Source of the DNA: a virus
Taxonomy: Duplodnaviria; Heunggongvirae; Uroviricota; Caudoviricetes
Reading direction: 5' to 3' (one strand)
DNA length: 60,666 nt
IMG/VR virus record: IMGVR_UViG_3300017989_000052
Below are positions 5,549-59,929 of this stretch, in pieces. The notes under the pieces are model-generated. The model had not been told where the DNA came from. It did no database searches and was given only the letters and a program-made list of their open reading frames with translations. The position numbers were made by a program, and so were the translations under genes. Position 1 is the stretch's first letter. The number at the start of each line of letters is the position of its first letter.

Positions 5549-5633
5549 CAAGGGTGGCCTACCAGGAGTAGGCAGCGATTATTTCAGTCCTAATTTCCAG
5601 GGAGGAAACGGACATTGGGTAGAGGCTAGTTTT

Positions 5634-6023
5634 ATGAATATTTCCACTAACCAACCAAAACTTATCATGACCTGGTGGGTCCAACCATCCCTCGTTGCTG
5701 AGGCTTTTGGTTATAGGGGGCCACTTCCTCTCCGCGATTGGGTCAGTATCAAAAAATGGCCGTGGGGAGAAATGGGGTATAAGCACGAAGACGGCATTAA
5801 ATTTATAACGGATCTCACAAAAATCGCCCTCAGAGAGGTTCTCACAATTGTTGCTGATTTTCATCGGCAGCATGGGATACCCTATACTTTTTCAAGTCCT
5901 GGTCTCGCGGGTCAACCCTATTTCGAAGCCCAGGCTTCGGACAACCAGGATATTAAGATTCTGTGCGAGGGTACTCCCCTTCGCCGGAATAAAGTTTTTG
6001 GTATTGTGTACGAACTCGTGTAG
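5634..6023 (+). CDS. hypothetical protein
   Basis: ORF downstream of promoter. Confidence 0.6.
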   Translation: MNISTNQPKLIMTWWVQPSLVAEAFGYRGPLPLRDWVSIKKWPWGEMGYKHEDGIKFITDLTKIALREVLTIVADFHRQHGIPYTFSSPGLAGQPYFEAQASDNQDIKILCEGTPLRRNKVFGIVYELV

Positions 6024-6032
6024 GAGGGTATT

Positions 6033-6257
6033 ATGCGTGGCCGTCCTATTAGCTTTCAACGACGACGGGGACTTCCGCTGGCTTCCAAGTCGGATGTTTC
6101 CCCTGTTGCAGCACCTAAGAAAAAAATTCTGAGTCCGAAAGAGCTATCGAAAGAGATGCTCATTTCCTGGGCACGGCTCCAAATCAAAGCGATTGATGAC
6201 TGGTATCGCAGTAACGGGCAGTTTTACGACGGCCCCGTTTTTGAAAAGGAGGCTTAA
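6033..6257 (+). CDS. hypothetical protein
   Basis: AGGAGG RBS. Confidence 0.6.
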   Translation: MRGRPISFQRRRGLPLASKSDVSPVAAPKKKILSPKELSKEMLISWARLQIKAIDDWYRSNGQFYDGPVFEKEA

Positions 6258-6325
6258 ACATAGGGGGTTTAACTAACGTGGATAGGTTCTAGGTTACGAC
6301 ACACAAACCGAAGGAGAAGGTACAT

Positions 6326-6910
6326 ATGAAAAACTTCCCGAAGACTTTCCAGCATGGCATACTCTTTACTGGGATTTTTATCATTCTGCTTCTCTGTATC
6401 CTATTTTCCCTTGGGATAGGAACCGTAACCCCCAAACCCGACCATTTAATTGTAGTCGATTTTGATGATAATGACTATTTCGACCGAACTATCACGTTTG
6501 GGAACTCCCAATTTGCCCCTTTCGCCAAAACGGTTGATCTTGGAAAAATTTTCCCTCTCTTTAATAAGAGGGAGATAGAGGTTCTGGCAATGACTAAGGA
6601 CGGCGTAACGCTTGAGATCGAGATTCTCTTTTATTGGGGTTTCAAGGTAGATCAGGCGCATGAACTAGTCAATCGGGTTGGCACGGATATAAACGAGTGG
6701 GCACGCCTCCACGTCGATCGCCCCCTAACACAAAATATACAGGTGGTTGCTTCCAACCTCACCCTTCGTGAAATAGTTACTGACCGGGCACAGGTTCTTC
6801 AAACAATTGGGCACGCCCAATGTTCCGATCCTCGATTTTCGCTTACAGCGGTACGGGCGCTTAATATTGGAGGGTATACTGAAGAGGACATAGCAAATAC
6901 AAGTGATTAG
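6326..6910 (+). CDS. SPFH/band-7-like membrane protein
   Basis: N-terminal TM helix; TKDGVTLEIEI ... IQVVASNLTLREIVTDRAQV resembles band-7. Confidence 0.55.
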   Translation: MKNFPKTFQHGILFTGIFIILLLCILFSLGIGTVTPKPDHLIVVDFDDNDYFDRTITFGNSQFAPFAKTVDLGKIFPLFNKREIEVLAMTKDGVTLEIEILFYWGFKVDQAHELVNRVGTDINEWARLHVDRPLTQNIQVVASNLTLREIVTDRAQVLQTIGHAQCSDPRFSLTAVRALNIGGYTEEDIANTSD

Positions 6911-6935
6911 TGTCCCATAACAACGGGAGAGGAAA

Positions 6936-7238
6936 ATGCAAATCGACCTTCTTATGCTCTACCTAGCAAAGTATGAAGGGGTAGCGCGCTTACCCAAACC
7001 CCATCTTGACCCCTTGGTCGACTTGCAGTATGCTATAGGGATTGAGGATATCGACGACGACGGCCAAGCCGTCTATGTCTATAAAATCACGGGGCATGGG
7101 GTTGCCTTCCTGGCTGCGGTTCTTCGGCGTTACCCACAATTCATAGTGGAAGAATGCTTTCAAGTTGACCTAGCAAAAATTGAGCCTGGAGAAACCCCGA
7201 AACGTCGAATCAAGATAGATCCCGATCTCCTATTATAA
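6936..7238 (+). CDS. hypothetical protein
   Basis: GAGG RBS. Confidence 0.6.
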   Translation: MQIDLLMLYLAKYEGVARLPKPHLDPLVDLQYAIGIEDIDDDGQAVYVYKITGHGVAFLAAVLRRYPQFIVEECFQVDLAKIEPGETPKRRIKIDPDLLL

Positions 7239-8799: not shown

Positions 8800-9113
8800 T
8801 GTTTAAACACTTGAAAACCGGGGTCCCATATAAGTTTACTGCTACAACAAACAAAGGGACTAAAACGGGGTTATTCGTTTTTGATAAACATGGGGAACTA
8901 AAAATCTGTGGTAGGTGTAGTTATATAGAAACAATAGGCAAAGAGTCTTCCTCAACATGGGCACAACTTATCGAAGGGTACTTCGAAGAAAATGAAGGGG
9001 ATTTAGTAATTAAGTGCTTCTCCTATACCTTTTCTCGGGTATCAATAGAAGAACTTTTAACTGATGAAAATCTTCATGTAAGAGCTTGGGCGAAGGAACA
9101 GGCAGCTAAATGA
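8799..9113 (+). CDS. LTH-tag protein (C-terminal tag)
   Basis: SIEELLTDENLHVRAWAKEQA. Confidence 0.8.
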   Translation: MFKHLKTGVPYKFTATTNKGTKTGLFVFDKHGELKICGRCSYIETIGKESSSTWAQLIEGYFEENEGDLVIKCFSYTFSRVSIEELLTDENLHVRAWAKEQAAK

Positions 9114-9649
9114 GCCAGCTTATTATCATCTCCGGTCCGTCGGGTGTTGGCAAAACAACAATTTGCAAAGCGTTATGTTTAGAAGAAGGCTTTGTTGAAT
9201 CCGTTTCAACAACAACCCGGCCGAAGCGGTCAACAGAAGAGTATGGAAAAGATTACTATTTTATCTCCGAAAAAAGTTTCGATGGCCTTGTAAATCATAA
9301 TGCTTTTCTTGAGTGGCAGCAATTCGCGGGGTTCCGTTATGGGACAACGAAAACAGAATTGGATGAGAAATTAAGAAAAAACAATTTCATTTTTGTAGTG
9401 GTAGAACAAGAAGGCGCGGCTAATATTAGAAAAACTTATCCTAATGCGATATCTATTTTTATAGCCCCTCCGAACAAGGAAGAGTTAATACGGAGGTTAT
9501 CAGGCCGAGGAGATACTCCGGACTTAAAAGAAAGATTAGCTTTAGTTAAGCAGACTTTAGAGCTCGCTAAATGTCACGATCATATTATAGAAGCACACTC
9601 GGTAGAAGATTGTATCGCTGAAATTAAAAATATTCTAGGACTTTCCTAG
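9110..9649 (+). CDS. gmk: guanylate kinase
   Basis: P-loop SGPSGVGKTT, SVSTTTRPKR, GKDYYFIS, FLEW, YGT, IFIAPP. Confidence 0.93.
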   Translation: MSQLIIISGPSGVGKTTICKALCLEEGFVESVSTTTRPKRSTEEYGKDYYFISEKSFDGLVNHNAFLEWQQFAGFRYGTTKTELDEKLRKNNFIFVVVEQEGAANIRKTYPNAISIFIAPPNKEELIRRLSGRGDTPDLKERLALVKQTLELAKCHDHIIEAHSVEDCIAEIKNILGLS

Positions 9650-9678
9650 TACAAAAAAATATCATAATATATAAGTTA
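9645..9678 (+). promoter_or_regulatory. putative phage promoter
   Basis: GTACAAAAAAATATCATAATATATAAG (CATAATATA core). Confidence 0.5.
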
Positions 9679-9727
9679 CCTTTGGGCGCAAAAAACGCGC
9701 CTTTTCACCGCAGAGGAGACCAAACCG

Positions 9728-9862
9728 ATGGCAGGACCTTCAAAAGGCAGCGGCAGTAGTCTTGGAAAAAACCGGAAACACGACCAGGACAAAAACAGGC
9801 GGGCGCGGAAGGCCCGGAAAATCCAGAAGAGGAACGGGAACGGAAAACCCCCGAAAAAATAA
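9728..9862 (+). CDS. small highly basic protein (44 aa)
   Basis: GAGGAG RBS; MAGPSKGSGSSLGKNRKHDQDKNRRARKARKIQKRNGNGKPPKK*. Confidence 0.65.
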   Translation: MAGPSKGSGSSLGKNRKHDQDKNRRARKARKIQKRNGNGKPPKK

Positions 9863-9908
9863 TTTCCTTCTGGGATCAAAGGCAATTCATCCTATAAATA
9901 ATACCTTT

Positions 9909-10425
9909 GGGGGCGCCATTGGCCATTTGCAGCCGCCCCCGGTGCGCGCGTAGGGCGAAAAGCCCGCTGAAGCAAGCCTGCCGGACACGCTGCCGGATGG
10001 GCAAACCATTTCGGAGGTTCAACATGCATCTGATCCGAGACGGCCCTTAAGAAGGAATCGATTGGCGGGGACCCTAAAGAAGCTTGAGTCCGGTTGCCCG
10101 CAAGCAGACCCACAAAGAAAAAAGCAAGAGAAACAAAGCATCGCCTGATCCCAATAACAATAGGAAAGGTGGACAATGCTGCAATCTTGAGCGGGGTAGT
10201 TTTCCTCTGCAGGTGAGGCCTATCTCGCGATGACAGAAAAAAGTTGAGCCTGCACCTTAAAAACGGGAAGAGGGGTCGTCGCAGACACTCAACCGCTTGC
10301 ACTGGCCAGGAGCCCCAAGAAGAGACCGAATTGCGGGGGCGGCCTGATGCCGGGGAAGCGGTCATGCTGGGAAAAAGTCCGGACACGCAAGCAACCCAGC
10401 AACTCACCTCACGCGACAACCCCTT
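9909..10425 (+). ncRNA. candidate large structured non-coding RNA (~510 nt)
   Basis: GC-rich island without a credible ORF; nested helices and a long-range closing helix; TATAAAT upstream and T-run downstream. Confidence 0.6.
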
Positions 10426-10532
10426 TTTCCTTCGTTTTAAATCGGTAGGTCATGTTAATGGAACTTTTAGAAAACCTTCGAAGTTCTGGGCAGTAACATT
10501 ATATATCTATTATAGTTTTCGCTTGGTATCTG

Positions 10533-11102
10533 ATGAAAGGCGTGACTATGCAACGGAAACAAAAATGGGGGAAACCTCTTCTCAAAGAAGAAATCGATGA
10601 TTTAGTCGCCCGAGTGGGTGTTTTTGAATGGGGGAGCTGTCAGTATCAAACCGCCGCAGGGTTTTTCTACTTAATCCGTGAGATGCGAGAAGATGGGATT
10701 CCTTGGGAGCAATGCCTGTCCCTTTTAGGGATAGAGTGCAACTTTAGTAAGATTGAGAATAATTTCAAAAACTTCGGGGGCGAGGAGATTGCTGGAGGAT
10801 TCGACAAGAAAGAGTATGAAGCGCTCTTCAAAATGCCATACCCCCCACCAGACCCACCCTCGGCAGAGGCGGCTTTTGAAATGACAAAAGACAGGGCTTG
10901 GGATTTGTGGGGGGCAGCTCCCACAATTGCTGAGTGGTGTTTTAAGGACTTAAAAATTGAAGCTCCCCAAAGCCCCGGATTCGGGCCGTCAGGGAATGTG
11001 CTGGTACAAAACACGAATTATATAGTCGGTCTCTGTTGTGCCCTGCTTTACGAATATGGTTTAGTAAAAGATATTGAATGCTTTAAGGATTACGACACGT
11101 AG
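10533..11102 (+). CDS. hypothetical protein
   Basis: Long ORF with typical composition. Confidence 0.65.
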   Translation: MKGVTMQRKQKWGKPLLKEEIDDLVARVGVFEWGSCQYQTAAGFFYLIREMREDGIPWEQCLSLLGIECNFSKIENNFKNFGGEEIAGGFDKKEYEALFKMPYPPPDPPSAEAAFEMTKDRAWDLWGAAPTIAEWCFKDLKIEAPQSPGFGPSGNVLVQNTNYIVGLCCALLYEYGLVKDIECFKDYDT

Positions 11103-12499: not shown

Positions 12500-12527
12500 A
12501 AAAAGGGAGCAGTGATGCTCCCTTTTT
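12500..12527. terminator. bidirectional intrinsic terminator
   Basis: AAAAAGGGAGC-AGTGAT-GCTCCCTTTTT between convergent genes. Confidence 0.85.
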
Positions 12528-12551
12528 CCGTAGCGGCGTTGTGAGGCTCGT

Positions 12552-12884
12552 CTAGAGCTTGGCGTCGACCTTCGCCGTCTCGAACAGCCAAGCGATGTTT
12601 TCGACCGCCCACGCCTTGCGGACGTACCACCGGCGGTTGCGCATGTACGCACCGGCGGCGTTGATGTCGTCCTCGGAGACGGGCTTGTGCGCGATCTCGC
12701 GCTCGCCGTTGTTGGTCCGCAGGGCCTTCCGGAGCTTGAAGCTCGCGGTGAACCCGGGGTCCGGGGACTGGGCGGAGGGGTCGAAATCGATCGACTTCTG
12801 CTCCTTGAGGCCCTTGAGAACCTCCATGAGCTTCATCGTCTCCTTCTCCCCGAACACCTTCTCGATCACAGTTTGCTTCGGCAT
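12552..12884 (-). CDS. GC-rich conserved basic protein, paralogue 1 of 3
   Basis: MKLMEVLKGLKEQKSIDFDPSAQSPDPGF...RRWYVRKAW; AGGAG RBS. Confidence 0.85.
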   Translation of the reverse strand: MPKQTVIEKVFGEKETMKLMEVLKGLKEQKSIDFDPSAQSPDPGFTASFKLRKALRTNNGEREIAHKPVSEDDINAAGAYMRNRRWYVRKAWAVENIAWLFETAKVDAKL

Positions 12885-13063
12885 GGCTCAACTCCTTGCA
12901 GGGATTGCCGAACAGAACAGTGGGGAAACTAACGCCCAGCCCAACTAGGGTGGGCGCCTAACCCCTTTGGTATTGGGTATATTGCTGAAACCAAAAGAGC
13001 CACGTATGAATTTATTTTTTAACGTAGCGTTTTTGGGATCACCTTTAACCCCTAATGCTAACC

Positions 13064-13110: not shown

Positions 13111-13151
13111 GGTTTGTATTTTGGGGTTCAGCTCTATAGTTTCAATAGAAA

Positions 13152-13253
13152 GCCCCCTATTATTAGGGGGCCAATTTGAAATTAGGCTACTTCCTTTTGT
13201 TTGCCCTTTTGTAGCTTTAATAAAATAATAAAGGGCCCCATTAATAGGGGGCC
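13152..13253. repeat. pair of related palindromes in divergent promoter region
   Basis: GCCCCCTA-TTAT-TAGGGGGC (13152-13171) and GGCCCC-ATTAATAG-GGGGCC (13234-13253). Confidence 0.6.
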
Positions 13254-13426
13254 TATGTTCCCAAAGGTAAATTAAAAACAATTAGCCAAAAATTCTCTAA
13301 GGAACCTACGAGGATCCTTATGAAATCTTTATATAAACCTTAGCAGGTTGCCCATTGGGGGTTCTGCTTTTTGGTGCTTGATTGCGCCACATCTTGGGCT
13401 AGGAATAGCCCGTCAGACAAGGAGAC

Positions 13427-46824: not shown

Positions 46825-46860
46825 GAAAGGGGGAGTCCTTCGGGGCTCCCCTTTTTTCTT
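46825..46860 (+). terminator. intrinsic terminator
   Basis: GGGGGAGTCC-TTCG-GGGCTCCCC-TTTTTT. Confidence 0.85.
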
Positions 46861-46864
46861 TCTA

Positions 46865-46896
46865 ATTACTAGGGTATTTCATAGTATAAATAATAG
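46865..46896 (+). promoter_or_regulatory. putative phage promoter
   Basis: GGTATTTCATAGTATAAATAATAG, near-identical to 49587-49610. Confidence 0.6.
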
Positions 46897-49291: not shown

Positions 49292-49564
49292 ATGCAATTC
49301 AAAAAAGAGTATCTCGAAGATAAAGATGGTAAACGGGTATTCCGTATTTATACGGACACCTATGGCAGAACCCTTGCGTTCCTCGAAACACTCGCGACAG
49401 AGATCAAGAAGAGTTTCCCTCCGCTTCATCCAGAAGACCTCGCTGTTGTGAAATATGGGGGAACCCGTAACCGCCAGATCTATGGAATCGAATTCTTCCC
49501 CCCAACTGATGTTGTGCCTTCTGGTTGGGAAAGGGTATCACAATTTGACCCCCACATCTCGTAA
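49292..49564 (+). CDS. hypothetical protein
   Basis: Start moved to ATG 49292. Confidence 0.65.
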   Translation: MQFKKEYLEDKDGKRVFRIYTDTYGRTLAFLETLATEIKKSFPPLHPEDLAVVKYGGTRNRQIYGIEFFPPTDVVPSGWERVSQFDPHIS

Positions 49565-49579
49565 GGCATTTCTTTCCAA

Positions 49580-49612
49580 GCACCAAGGTATTTCATAATA
49601 TAAATAATAGCC
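49580..49612 (+). promoter_or_regulatory. putative phage promoter
   Basis: GGTATTTCATAATATAAATAATAG. Confidence 0.6.
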
Positions 49613-53286: not shown

Positions 53287-53362
53287 GAGGAGCGGAGGGA
53301 GTCGAACCCTCAGCCATCCCAATTAAGAGACGACCTAAACCGTTACGCCCTTGACCGCACCT
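53287..53362 (-). tRNA. degenerate D-armless tRNA-Leu(TAG)-like element
   Basis: T-arm GAGGG-TTCGACT-CCCTC, acceptor AGGTGCG/CGCTCCT, loop TTTAGGT, long variable arm. Confidence 0.45.
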
Positions 53363-57572: not shown

Positions 57573-57665
57573 GTCTTTGATTATATAAGTCTTTGATTAT
57601 ATAAGTCTTTGAGATCAATATAAGTCTTTGATTATATAAGTCTTTGATTATATAAGTCTTTGAGA
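57573..57665. repeat. 16-bp tandem (iteron-like) array
   Basis: GATTATATAAGTCTTT x2, a 19-bp variant, then x2. Confidence 0.9.
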
Positions 57666-57745
57666 GAGGTGGAAAAAATCGCGCGATTGAAATAACGGGG
57701 GGTCAGGTTAAAAAACGGCGCAAACACCGAGAACAAACGTTTAAA

Positions 57746-59929
57746 TTACATGTCAGTAAAAGCTTTCCCTCGAAGAAGGAACGATAGGGCATTTGTTTTG
57801 GTTATAACTTTTATTTTCTTCCCAGCGAAATCCATTAGTCCCCTAAAGTTTTCTAAAAGCTCTAATTCTTCTTTTGTAAATTTATCTCTACCGACGTAAT
57901 TGAGAACGGCATCTCGTATTTGCTTTTCTCCTCCCTTGGCGTTTAATTCAATCAACTTATTTTTCATTTCTTGGGATAATTTTGATTTCTCTATATCAAG
58001 GGCTGTTAAATGCTTTGCTGCTGCAGAGGAGATGCCCGGCATCTTATAGGAGAATATGCTTTCTAAAAACCATATAATTTCTTTTGGGGTTACTTTCTTT
58101 ATTTTTTCTAGGTCAATATTAAAATCTTTTAAAAGGGCATCCATTTGTTTTTCAAACGTGTGCCAAGATAGGTATTTAAAGCCCTCTTGCCCAATTATCT
58201 CTCGTATTGTTTCTTTTGGCACGGCGAGCTGAAATAATTTTTCAACTCGTTCTTTTGCTTTCAACAGTTTTGGAAGGGGGAGGGAAGTGAAAAAGGCATC
58301 AAGGTGGACTCCCATTGCCAAAAATTCTTTTGGCCTTTTAGCAATTTCTTCTAATTGGCTTATTGTTGTCTTAGAGAATAATTTGCTCAGGTATGCTTCG
58401 AATGCTAATTTTGGCCCAAGTGCGGCTGTATTTTCTTCAAAACTTTCTCGGAGAGCTTTAATAACTTTAACTTTATCCATTGACCCCGGCAGGTGAAAAA
58501 ACCCGCTTAATGCCTTATATTGTTCTTCTTCGCTACCTTGCGAGAAGACATCATTAAAATAGGATTTAAGTTCATCTAACATTGTTCCTTCCTTGTTAGG
58601 GGATGGAAGGGAGTCTAACTCTGCATAATATTTTATTTTTGCTGCGGGGTCTGCTTCAATTATAGCGAGGGCTTTTTTTCCTATCTCCGTTTTTGGATTC
58701 CAAGGCTTGAGAAACGTACTTGCGTAATGAATGGCTACTGTTTTGTCTTCCACTATTACTTTTAATGCCTTTTTCCCAAACTCTGAATTTGGGTCCCAAG
58801 GTTTTCTCATTTCTTTAGCATAGTCTGTGGCGGCTCTTGCATTTTTTGTTATCTGAAATAGGGCTACTTTTCCTTCTTCGGTGTTCGGGTCCCAAGCTCC
58901 ATATTTTTGCGCGCTTTTAAGTACTCTAGCTATGTTATTAGAATAAGCTGCGGTAATTTTAATTTCTTTTATAATCTCAGGGTCTTCTGTTTTAATTCTT
59001 AAGCAGGTTTGTGGGTTTTTCGCGAGTTTTAATAAATCTTCTTTTGTAAGCTCAATAAGATCGTGCTCATATAAGGTTATTAGCACGCGGGTATCATTTT
59101 TTGCGGTTTCATAAATACGTTTAACTTCATCTTTAAAGTCTTTTACTTTGAAATCATAATTAAGGAAGAGGTATATTAGGAATCCTAATTTCTTCTCATT
59201 CGGCAAATCCGGATATATTTTTCTCATTACAGTTGGCAAGATTGAATCCATCGTTGCTTTATTAATTTCGTCGTCGTCTGGAAATTTAAACTCTGCATCT
59301 TGATTTGTAAAGCTTCCTAATATATAATTCTTCCCATCTTTAATAAAGAGATAATGTGTGCCTCTTTCTGCTATATAATCTTCTGCGGTTTCTTCGTGTC
59401 TCACACACCAATCTATGTGTACCTCAGGGTCTTGAGCGAGGATTGTTAAAGATTTAGGGTCAGATATTTCATATATAAGGAGTTGCCCTCCTTGGACTTT
59501 TTTAACTCCTGGGAGGTTGCGAGAATCAATTTTCTTTTCTCGGACTTCATTTCTAAGTTTTGGTGCTTCTTCTTCAAATCTCTTGAGTGTTTTTATTAAT
59601 TCATCTTTCGTATATTCAAGAATATTTGTAGGAAGTCCTAATTTATTGAGTCGGGGCTTAAATTTCTTGAATTCCTGAAGCCTTCTTTTGGCTGCTTCAA
59701 AGTCTTCGGGGAATCTATAATTTCCTGCGTACCATTCTCTGGCAATCCAATCAATATATTTTTGATCTATACCATAGAGAAGTTTCCAAAATTCTTCTTC
59801 TAATAGATTTTTATCTTCAAGGAATTGGTTAAAGTTCTCTTTAGATTTAAATGCCGTTTGAATTGTTTGTTGTTTAGAAACGGCGATTCTAATGATTGAT
59901 GCTATTCTAAGTAATTTATATGGTATCAT
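57746..59929 (-). CDS. large hypothetical protein (727 aa) with short helical W-x-P repeats
   Basis: YIDWIAREW, WCVR...HYLFIKDG; repeats AQKYGAWDP, YAKEMRKPWDP, YASTFLKPWNP. Confidence 0.8.
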   Translation of the reverse strand: MIPYKLLRIASIIRIAVSKQQTIQTAFKSKENFNQFLEDKNLLEEEFWKLLYGIDQKYIDWIAREWYAGNYRFPEDFEAAKRRLQEFKKFKPRLNKLGLPTNILEYTKDELIKTLKRFEEEAPKLRNEVREKKIDSRNLPGVKKVQGGQLLIYEISDPKSLTILAQDPEVHIDWCVRHEETAEDYIAERGTHYLFIKDGKNYILGSFTNQDAEFKFPDDDEINKATMDSILPTVMRKIYPDLPNEKKLGFLIYLFLNYDFKVKDFKDEVKRIYETAKNDTRVLITLYEHDLIELTKEDLLKLAKNPQTCLRIKTEDPEIIKEIKITAAYSNNIARVLKSAQKYGAWDPNTEEGKVALFQITKNARAATDYAKEMRKPWDPNSEFGKKALKVIVEDKTVAIHYASTFLKPWNPKTEIGKKALAIIEADPAAKIKYYAELDSLPSPNKEGTMLDELKSYFNDVFSQGSEEEQYKALSGFFHLPGSMDKVKVIKALRESFEENTAALGPKLAFEAYLSKLFSKTTISQLEEIAKRPKEFLAMGVHLDAFFTSLPLPKLLKAKERVEKLFQLAVPKETIREIIGQEGFKYLSWHTFEKQMDALLKDFNIDLEKIKKVTPKEIIWFLESIFSYKMPGISSAAAKHLTALDIEKSKLSQEMKNKLIELNAKGGEKQIRDAVLNYVGRDKFTKEELELLENFRGLMDFAGKKIKVITKTNALSFLLRGKAFTDM

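Follow-up and report, generated by a model that had tools for sequence, protein, structure and literature searches.

A probable GC-rich transcription unit in a huge-phage sequence

We examined a 60,666-nt stretch of DNA from a tailed virus, IMG/VR record IMGVR_UViG_3300017989_000052 (hereafter the window), at an island that an earlier sequence-only reading, produced by a model without database searches, had put forward as a large structured non-coding RNA (ncRNA). From 9903 to about 10441 on the plus strand lies a separate unit; it has its own conserved promoter block, a hairpin at the 5′ end and a U-tract preceded by a terminator-like stem. Within it we identified an element missing from the list in that reading, a Shine–Dalgarno (SD) sequence with an 8-codon open reading frame (ORF) encoding MHLIRDGP (10013–10050). 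From sequence comparisons, we put the probability that the unit is a stand-alone folded RNA carrying a ribosome-pausing mini-gene at roughly 0.5.

The island is GC rich, as had been noticed, with a GC content of 0.57 across 9903–10430 versus 0.42 for the window and up to 0.605 in 200-nt bins. All strings quoted in the earlier reading were found where it had placed them; the TATAAAT box is likewise present, its exact position being 9893–9899 rather than about 9891, and CCCCTTTTT occupies 10421–10429 at the 3′ end of the island. The window carries a series of small plus-strand genes, nearly all without database relatives. Because identical copies of its sequence sit on 228–384-kb metagenomic contigs, we assign it to an uncultivated huge phage.

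Homologues were recovered on two short metagenomic contigs (L001 and L002) that encode a 78%-identical relative of the downstream 184-amino-acid (aa) protein. A gene-free gap in these contigs holds a diverged copy of the island with the same architecture, and the RNA stands directly upstream of the 184-aa gene in both lineages. Conservation is patterned: identity to L001 is 83–90% in the promoter block, the best-conserved portion of the locus, 73–81% in the SD and mini-ORF, 87–90% in a 63-nt core (10183–10245) and 37–67% in the remaining, variable RNA body. The U-rich tail and the promoter-like region of the next gene are also conserved in L001. The features of the locus are as follows.

9110–9649: guanylate kinase gene, upstream of the RNA
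9849–9902, plus strand: promoter block ending in TATAAAT (9893–9899)
9909–9940, plus strand: P1, 5′-terminal G5C hairpin of 7 bp in the minimum-free-energy (MFE) fold of the window
9941–9946/10251–10256, plus strand: long-range helix enclosing the central domain, predicted independently in both MFE folds
9953–9965 and 9976–10002, plus strand: two variable 5′-domain hairpins, stable in the window fold
10013–10017, plus strand: SD sequence GGAGG, 6 nt before the AUG, conserved in L001 with 8-nt spacing
10024–10050, plus strand: 8-codon ORF MHLIRDGP-stop (ATG to TAA), its C-terminal R-D-G-P resembling an arrest core
10065–10101, plus strand: hairpin 3′ of the mini-ORF, kept in free and ribosome-constrained folds
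10102–10136, plus strand: A-rich linker, conserved in composition, 37–43% identical in sequence
10137–10180, plus strand: variable hairpin following the A-rich linker
10183–10245, plus strand: conserved core, the most conserved portion of the RNA body
10191–10199/10220–10228, plus strand: 9-bp core hairpin with one single change (G-U to G-C) and no double change
10265–10430, plus strand: 3′ three-way-junction domain composed of P-term, hairpin A (10292–10362) and hairpin B (10365–10401)
10265–10282/10413–10430, plus strand: P-term, the closing stem, with three double and three single changes and one C-A mismatch that becomes C-G
10293–10298/10356–10361, plus strand: closing stem of hairpin A, one double change
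10313–10316/10336–10339, plus strand: inner stem of hairpin A, one double change
10365–10371/10395–10401, plus strand: hairpin B, one double change
10431–10443, plus strand: U-rich tail TTCGTTTTAAA, likely 3′ end directly 3′ of P-term, identical in L001
10548–11102: gene for a 184-aa protein whose predicted fold has no informative match, downstream of the RNA
Next after the 184-aa gene: HAD_SAK_2 gene

A search for a third lineage through the two flanking proteins, the antisense ORF or DNA patterns in IMG/VR and the JGI metagenomes yielded none, nor did the guanylate kinase neighbor when used as bait. The flanking proteins have no relatives in IMG/VR, and neither the island nor a 727-aa window protein had a BLAST match in the INPHARED phage collection. 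Exact back-translation of the mini-ORF returned no match in IMG/VR and, from the JGI metagenomes, L002 alone, and the conserved-core pattern had no match in IMG/VR.

Peptide-level conservation of the mini-ORF

The peptide MHLIRDGP, encoded near the 5′ third of the RNA, is identical in L001 and L002 despite five nucleotide changes, four of them synonymous and the fifth converting TAA to TAG. In a simulation, five random substitutions left both peptide and stop intact with P = 2.7e-4. The ORF is 81% identical to its L001 counterpart versus 45–52% for the 60-nt flanks. With the SD kept, the peptide identical, the divergence synonymous and the flanks diverged, the comparison makes a strong case for translation of the ORF and for the importance of its peptide. 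On both strands of the window, MHLIRDGP was the only SD-led short ORF containing R-x-[G/P]-P. The RNA can, therefore, not be called non-coding, since it holds an SD-led ORF under clear peptide-level selection.

The longer ORFs that overlap the island had been taken for shadow frames, and this view was borne out. The most prominent, a 175-aa minus-strand ORF with a TTG start, has no Pfam match and is broken up in L001, where the corresponding sequence is unrelated at the protein level. Among 5.8 billion proteins, its relatives were confined to its own near-identical cluster; used as a query for islands miscalled as proteins, it again returned only that cluster. No long ORF across the island is conserved in the homologue on either strand.

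Probable transcript boundaries

The promoter block has two near-copies elsewhere in the window, at 46841–46895 (about 300 nt upstream of a tRNA-Met) and at 49555–49609 (in front of a gene for a 109-aa protein). Each precedes a GC hairpin, and they share the pattern …TTTCAT-NN-TATAAATAATA…. These blocks are candidates for a phage-specific promoter class in which a 5′ GC hairpin follows each promoter. At the locus itself, we infer a transcription start near 9903–9909.

At the other end, P-term is an 18-bp covarying stem (10265–10282/10413–10430) followed by the conserved UUCGUUUU, giving the GC-rich stem and U-tract of an intrinsic terminator. It is atypical in closing a 130-nt three-way junction, and for this reason a simple terminator scan did not list it. 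We infer a terminator role for P-term and its U-tract. Since a conserved promoter-like region of the next gene comes after P-term and UUCGUUUU, the RNA appears to be a transcript in its own right, about 535 nt long.

Further small cassettes occur around this unit. Just 5′ of it, at 9670–9862, lies a looser copy of the promoter block, with a TATAAGT promoter-like site, the same ACCTTTGGG start as in the RNA unit and a 5′ GC hairpin, followed by an SD and a highly basic 44-aa ORF (9728–9862; MAGPSKG…RRAR…KPPKK) that is conserved in L001 at 1120–1251. An additional cassette in L001 (1240–1604) encodes a 64-aa ORF (1317–1511) without a Pfam match and sits between two copies of the ~55-nt promoter block, an arrangement that points to shuffling of promoter-flanked cassettes here.

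Fold and covariation

The plus strand of the island folds better than its dinucleotide shuffles (MFE z = −2.6, with 0 of 100 shuffles as good), the minus strand less well (z = −1.4), and the L001 copy reaches z = −5.3. For the two-sequence consensus fold, the energy was −91.3 versus −65.3 ± 6.5 for column shuffles of the whole alignment. Comparing window and L001 in curated helices, which were picked from the same two sequences, we counted six double and four single compensatory changes and one mismatch in 44 pairs. When the 3′ partners were slid by 1–3 nt as a control, 0–1 double changes and 25–29 broken pairs resulted. In a hand register keyed on the shared GCG/UGC core, two more double changes, for a total of eight, and one single change fall in the long-range helix (L001 1671–1680/2029–2038), which links the segment 3′ of the 5′ hairpins with the segment just before P-term. 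With two lineages at hand, we regard the RNA structure as supported, not proven.

Individual elements differ in how well they are kept. The 5′ hairpin P1, already recognized in the sequence-only reading (H1, 9909–9915/9934–9940), has an equivalent in L001 at 1612–1617/1628–1633 with another loop. The following region (9953–10002) cannot be aligned with L001, whose hairpins here are different and larger. In the hairpin at 10065–10101, the consensus fold shows double changes such as GAC/GUC versus CCC/GGG, and L001 has a 35-nt insertion within 10102–10180. The core hairpin, lacking double changes, offers no covariation evidence. Among the other helices proposed earlier, hairpin B (H7) recurs with a compensatory U-A to C-G change and H6b is kept in L001. 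The same cannot be said of H4, H5 and the long-range H2 (9947–9954/10407–10415), none of which persists there. For the CCGCTT strand of H3, AAGCGG at 10356–10361 is a better, covarying partner.

Similar mini-ORFs in other genomes

We scanned IMG/VR and GTDB genomes for an SD followed by M-x-x-I-R-D-G-P and a stop. IMG/VR gave one match, in the complete 276-kb phage G001 (GC content 0.295), which shares 1 of 167 ORFs with the window. Here, the motif lies in two paralogous units, each running from a sigma-70-type promoter to a strong terminator, after which a new promoter follows. GTDB genomes gave four matches, about what we estimate by chance, and three of them are evidently chance. In L011, a 1.4-Mb gammaproteobacterial metagenome-assembled genome, the match falls in a 1.45-kb ORF-free GC-rich island (5600–7050; 0.50–0.62 versus about 0.37) between dnaB and a HAD gene. 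The mini-ORFs read as follows.

G001 unit A: MNKIRDGP-stop, and 238 nt later MNRIRDTP…
G001 unit B: xNNLRDGP…, and 220 nt later MNKIRDTP-stop
L011 island: MRYIRDGP; SD-led MPRDPP-stop 246 nt downstream; MIRAPP… (a single genome, without comparative support)

The four G001 ORFs are the only SD-led short ORFs with R-[ADGS]-[GPT]-P in the whole G001 genome, where scrambled motifs gave 0–1. The ~200 nt between the ORFs of each unit have a GC content of 0.49 and are diverged, the peptides being kept through CGA/AGA swaps, and both units fold well (z = −4.1 and −5.6, terminator included). A search of 40 relatives of the L011 genome did not recover its island, and neither this island nor the G001 islands has an Rfam match.

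Across the SD-led x-x-x-[I/L]-R-D-G-P mini-ORFs, [I/L]-R-D-G-P is invariant, and the companion ORFs carry R-D-T-P, R-D-P-P or R-A-P-P. All five phage-type and island copies use GGC for the glycine; proline, arginine, isoleucine and aspartate codons vary among copies and the peptide is kept. In two copies, the ORF runs on beyond the proline.

Candidates from relaxed patterns were rejected as chance: L012 and L014 because they lie inside coding regions, and L013 and L021 because they lack a stop. Fifteen R/S-D-T-P matches proved to be protein N termini or antisense to long ORFs. The L011 island additionally contains SD-led MDWT-stop and MYDWW-stop ORFs and a 15-aa arginine-rich micro-ORF. In the window core, a conserved AUG (10230–10247, GCGATGA…AGAAAAAA) lies 206 nt after the mini-ORF start (239 nt in L001), a spacing close to the 220–246 nt of the second mini-ORFs in G001 and L011; its peptide is not conserved (MTEKS-stop versus a long frame).

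A possible ribosome-arrest peptide

The C terminus of the mini-ORF shares with SecM (…G-I-R-A-G-P), ApdA, ApdP and ApcA an R-x-[G/P]-P core in which arginine stands three residues before a final proline. Both window and L001 end in …I-R-D-G-P-stop, with arginine at −3 and proline in the A-site position, and the same core recurs in G001 and L011. In RAPP-like cores, the arginine is irreplaceable, and the changes alanine to aspartate (in ApdA and ApdP) and proline to glycine are partly permissive (PMC12992588). At position 2, where these cores have a small residue (alanine or glycine), the window peptide has the only partly permissive aspartate; at position 3, where they have proline or glycine, it has glycine, as in the R-A-G-P core of SecM (PMC12992588). 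R-D-P-P, found in one of the L011 companions, is among the most avoided tetrapeptides of proteomes (PMC12992588). R-D-G-P, R-D-T-P, R-D-P-P and R-A-P-P vary along the axis of RAPP-like arrest cores. The resemblance to the SecM, RAPP and RGPP systems extends to a short ORF placed on a structured RNA and to the R-D-P-P and R-A-P-P companions in related systems. Differences are the length of only eight residues, without a tunnel-spanning N terminus and with no possibility of release by pulling force, the combination of aspartate at position 2 with glycine at position 3, and the lack of an obviously controlled downstream gene. In the literature searched, we found no description of IRDGP or of arrest micro-ORFs on phage RNAs.

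Very short peptides can stall ribosomes, as the 5–8-residue MsrDL, Erm, cat and cmlA leaders do, and in ermC a stalled ribosome near the 5′ end can stabilize the RNA. In those systems, stalling depends on an antibiotic and governs a resistance gene by means of a hairpin that hides the SD; both traits are absent here. By analogy with the arrest peptides above, we judge the chance that MHLIRDGP arrests ribosomes to be a little short of even.

In such a mechanism, R-D-G-P would act like the arrest cores of SecM and the RAPP peptides. At the pause, Gly-tRNA would occupy the P site and Pro-tRNA the A site, or else the ribosome would halt on the following stop codon; because the ORF runs past the proline in two copies, we favor an elongation-type pause over a purely termination-type one. 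The paused ribosome might then act in cis, either as a roadblock that stabilizes the RNA or by coupling the fold or lifetime of the RNA to the state of the host translation machinery, and the effector function would reside in the conserved core hairpin and the 3′ three-way junction. The RNA, then, is probably active while occupied by a ribosome, and it is not purely non-coding.

Several results weigh against a folded RNA with a ribosome-pausing mini-gene. On the peptide side, most natural RAPP-like motifs gave no stalling in vitro (PMC10987492), and the R-D-G-P combination is not among the cores reported (PMC12992588). Known arrest peptides need an N-terminal region in the exit tunnel (PMC12992588), and only M-H-L-I precedes the core here. 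The window RNA has no detectable sequence similarity to the G001 and L011 islands outside the mini-ORF. Regarding the RNA itself, only two lineages appeared in everything searched, and the curated helices were chosen from those same two sequences. Over the whole alignment, the 24 compensatory pairs compare with 16.9 ± 3.4 in shuffles, whose maximum was also 24. Block-wise tests were weak: in the 3′ domain, z was −2.3 and compensatory pairs did not outnumber those of shuffles; the 5′ domain gained no support. The minus-strand consensus scored about the same as the plus strand. Because of the weak block tests and the similar minus-strand score, the strand call rests on the promoter, the SD-led ORF, the U-tract and G-U pairs, several of which in the curated helices would be A-C on the minus strand. 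Lastly, no conserved alternative pairing joins the mini-ORF to the rest of the fold; with the ribosome footprint constrained as unpaired, a switch between mini-ORF and core appeared in the window only, not in L001.

We also consider, as a tentative and rather doubtful extension, an undescribed ‘ribosome-docking’ class of stand-alone GC-rich folded RNAs in unrelated huge phages and in the foreign island of a small bacterial genome. The members of such a class would have nothing in common but their SD-led micro-ORFs, one to three per RNA, with R-[D/A]-[G/T/P]-P at the end. The parked ribosome would be a built-in cofactor, through which the RNA titrates or marks ribosomes of the host or monitors the state of translation factors in the course of infection. 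Work on large structured RNAs is usually separate from work on ribosome-arrest peptides; here the two would be joined in one phage transcript. If the 8-residue peptide truly pauses ribosomes, it would be one of the shortest known arrest modules that need no drug. In that case, the R-x-[G/P]-P core could work with almost no N-terminal context, and huge phages would have a compact means of engaging the ribosomes of the host or of sensing them. Because the motif recurs in unrelated systems, it offers a simple search handle for further such RNAs.

Alternative explanations and relation to known RNA families

The strongest alternative, although unlikely, is that the RNA forms a long 5′ leader of the 184-aa gene (10548–11102), with pausing at the mini-ORF controlling read-through of P-term. 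Its position directly upstream of that gene in both lineages would suit this arrangement, and arrest peptides classically regulate a downstream gene (PMC12992588). However, the mini-ORF lies 215 nt upstream of the 5′ arm of the terminator and no conserved alternative pairing joins the two. The 100 nt between terminator and gene are 73–77% conserved and contain a separate promoter-like site, and in its more distant relatives the 184-aa gene lacks such an RNA upstream. For these reasons, we consider a leader or attenuator less likely than a stand-alone unit; in G001, too, each unit closes with a strong terminator before a new promoter.

A free octapeptide acting as effector or inhibitor, with the folded RNA as its stabilizing 3′ untranslated region (UTR) and terminator, would explain peptide-level conservation within and between systems and the invariance of [I/L]-R-D-G-P. 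We nevertheless hold it to be quite unlikely. The second ORFs vary along the arrest-motif axis and two ORFs continue past the proline; therefore, a motif read inside the ribosome fits better than a fixed free ligand. In addition, the RNA core is, at 87–90% identity, more conserved than the ORF and is accompanied by covarying helices, neither of which a passive UTR needs.

The sequence-only reading had placed the RNA in the GOLLD or ROOL class or in a new class of large RNAs. We ran cmscan against Rfam 15, a check suggested there, on the window at gathering thresholds and on 9500–10700 permissively at E ≤ 10. The first search returned three tRNAs elsewhere and nothing at the locus; the sole match of the second was a 14-bit small RNA on the minus strand at 9791–9916, and the RNA thus matched no family. 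GOLLD, ROOL, OLE, HEARO and raiA were rejected, none giving a covariance-model match even at E ≤ 10. RNase P and group I introns had no Rfam match at the locus, and for group II introns, which are marked by a 5′ GUGYG together with domains V and VI, neither Intron_gpII nor the D1–D4 models matched. The GTGCG at 9942, which had been seen as an echo of a group II 5′ end, is not conserved in L001. Transfer-messenger RNA (tmRNA) was rejected too, with no ARAGORN prediction in the window and no Rfam match at the locus; furthermore, the mini-ORF has an SD and an AUG, whereas the tmRNA tag ORF has neither.

A pure ornate ncRNA, GOLLD- or ROOL-like or new, with an incidental mini-ORF would account for the size, the GC-rich island, the multi-helix fold and the phage location, as in those classes (PMC12286853). 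Like GOLLD, ROOL and OLE, the RNA exceeds 500 nt, has many helices and is phage encoded. It differs in matching none of their covariance models, in being known from two lineages only and in having an SD-led, apparently translated ORF. A large RNA of this kind would be free of a translated frame, and here an 8-codon frame follows an SD and its divergence is all synonymous. The SD, the synonymous-only divergence (P = 2.7e-4) and the recurrence elsewhere are unlike an incidental ORF, and we rate this explanation as improbable. What stands of the earlier assignment is a discrete, conserved and structured RNA gene outside the catalogued families; membership in a known class does not. Given its SD-led ORF under peptide-level selection, we place the RNA nearer to RNAs that are coupled to translation or encode arrest peptides than to the ornate ncRNAs.

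Similarly improbable is a minigene of the lambda bar type, in which abundant translation of a short ORF leads to peptidyl-tRNA drop-off, tRNA sequestration and disturbed host translation. Minigenes of 3–8 codons sequester tRNA (PMC2490762), and the RNA resembles lambda bar and synthetic 3–8-codon minigenes in having an SD and a very short ORF (here no longer than 8 codons) on a strong stand-alone phage transcript unlike a normal protein gene. The constant GGC glycine codon would also agree with such a role. Dependence on the last codon is, however, not what we observed: the peptide is conserved while its proline, arginine, isoleucine and aspartate codons vary, two ORFs extend beyond the motif and the mini-ORF is embedded in a large conserved fold. 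Compared with a ribosome-pausing mini-gene, the free octapeptide, the bar-like minigene and the incidental ORF in a pure ncRNA are possible at lower odds.

A decaying, non-functional fragment captured from a GC-rich genome is highly improbable and already disfavored, for although the composition is atypical and another GC-rich, foreign-looking gene lies 2 kb away (12552–12884), conservation is patterned (promoter, SD-led ORF and core kept, linkers variable), compensatory changes occur in helices and neither strand has a conserved long ORF.

Neighboring gene and other features of the window

The 184-aa protein encoded downstream of the RNA has no match in Pfam or PHROGs, and its structural model (predicted local distance difference test score, pLDDT, 74) retrieved nothing informative from the PDB and AFDB clusters. 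The second GC-rich island (0.60–0.68) covers 12500–12950, 2 kb from the RNA, and contains a minus-strand 110-aa ORF (12552–12884) whose codon usage is GC rich and which matches nothing in Pfam or PHROGs. Several minus-strand terminator-like hairpins occur beyond it at 13150–13255, and the region resembles a foreign gene of recent acquisition.

Weak tRNA-like or tmRNA-like covariance-model matches at 53290–53358 (E = 0.014–0.016) fall within a GC-rich 46–54-kb region holding three tRNAs and may be degenerate tRNA-like elements. At 57584–57670, just downstream of the 3′ end of a 727-aa minus-strand gene (57746–59929), five or six tandem copies of the ~16-nt unit TATAAGTCTTTGATTA resemble an iteron or operator array.

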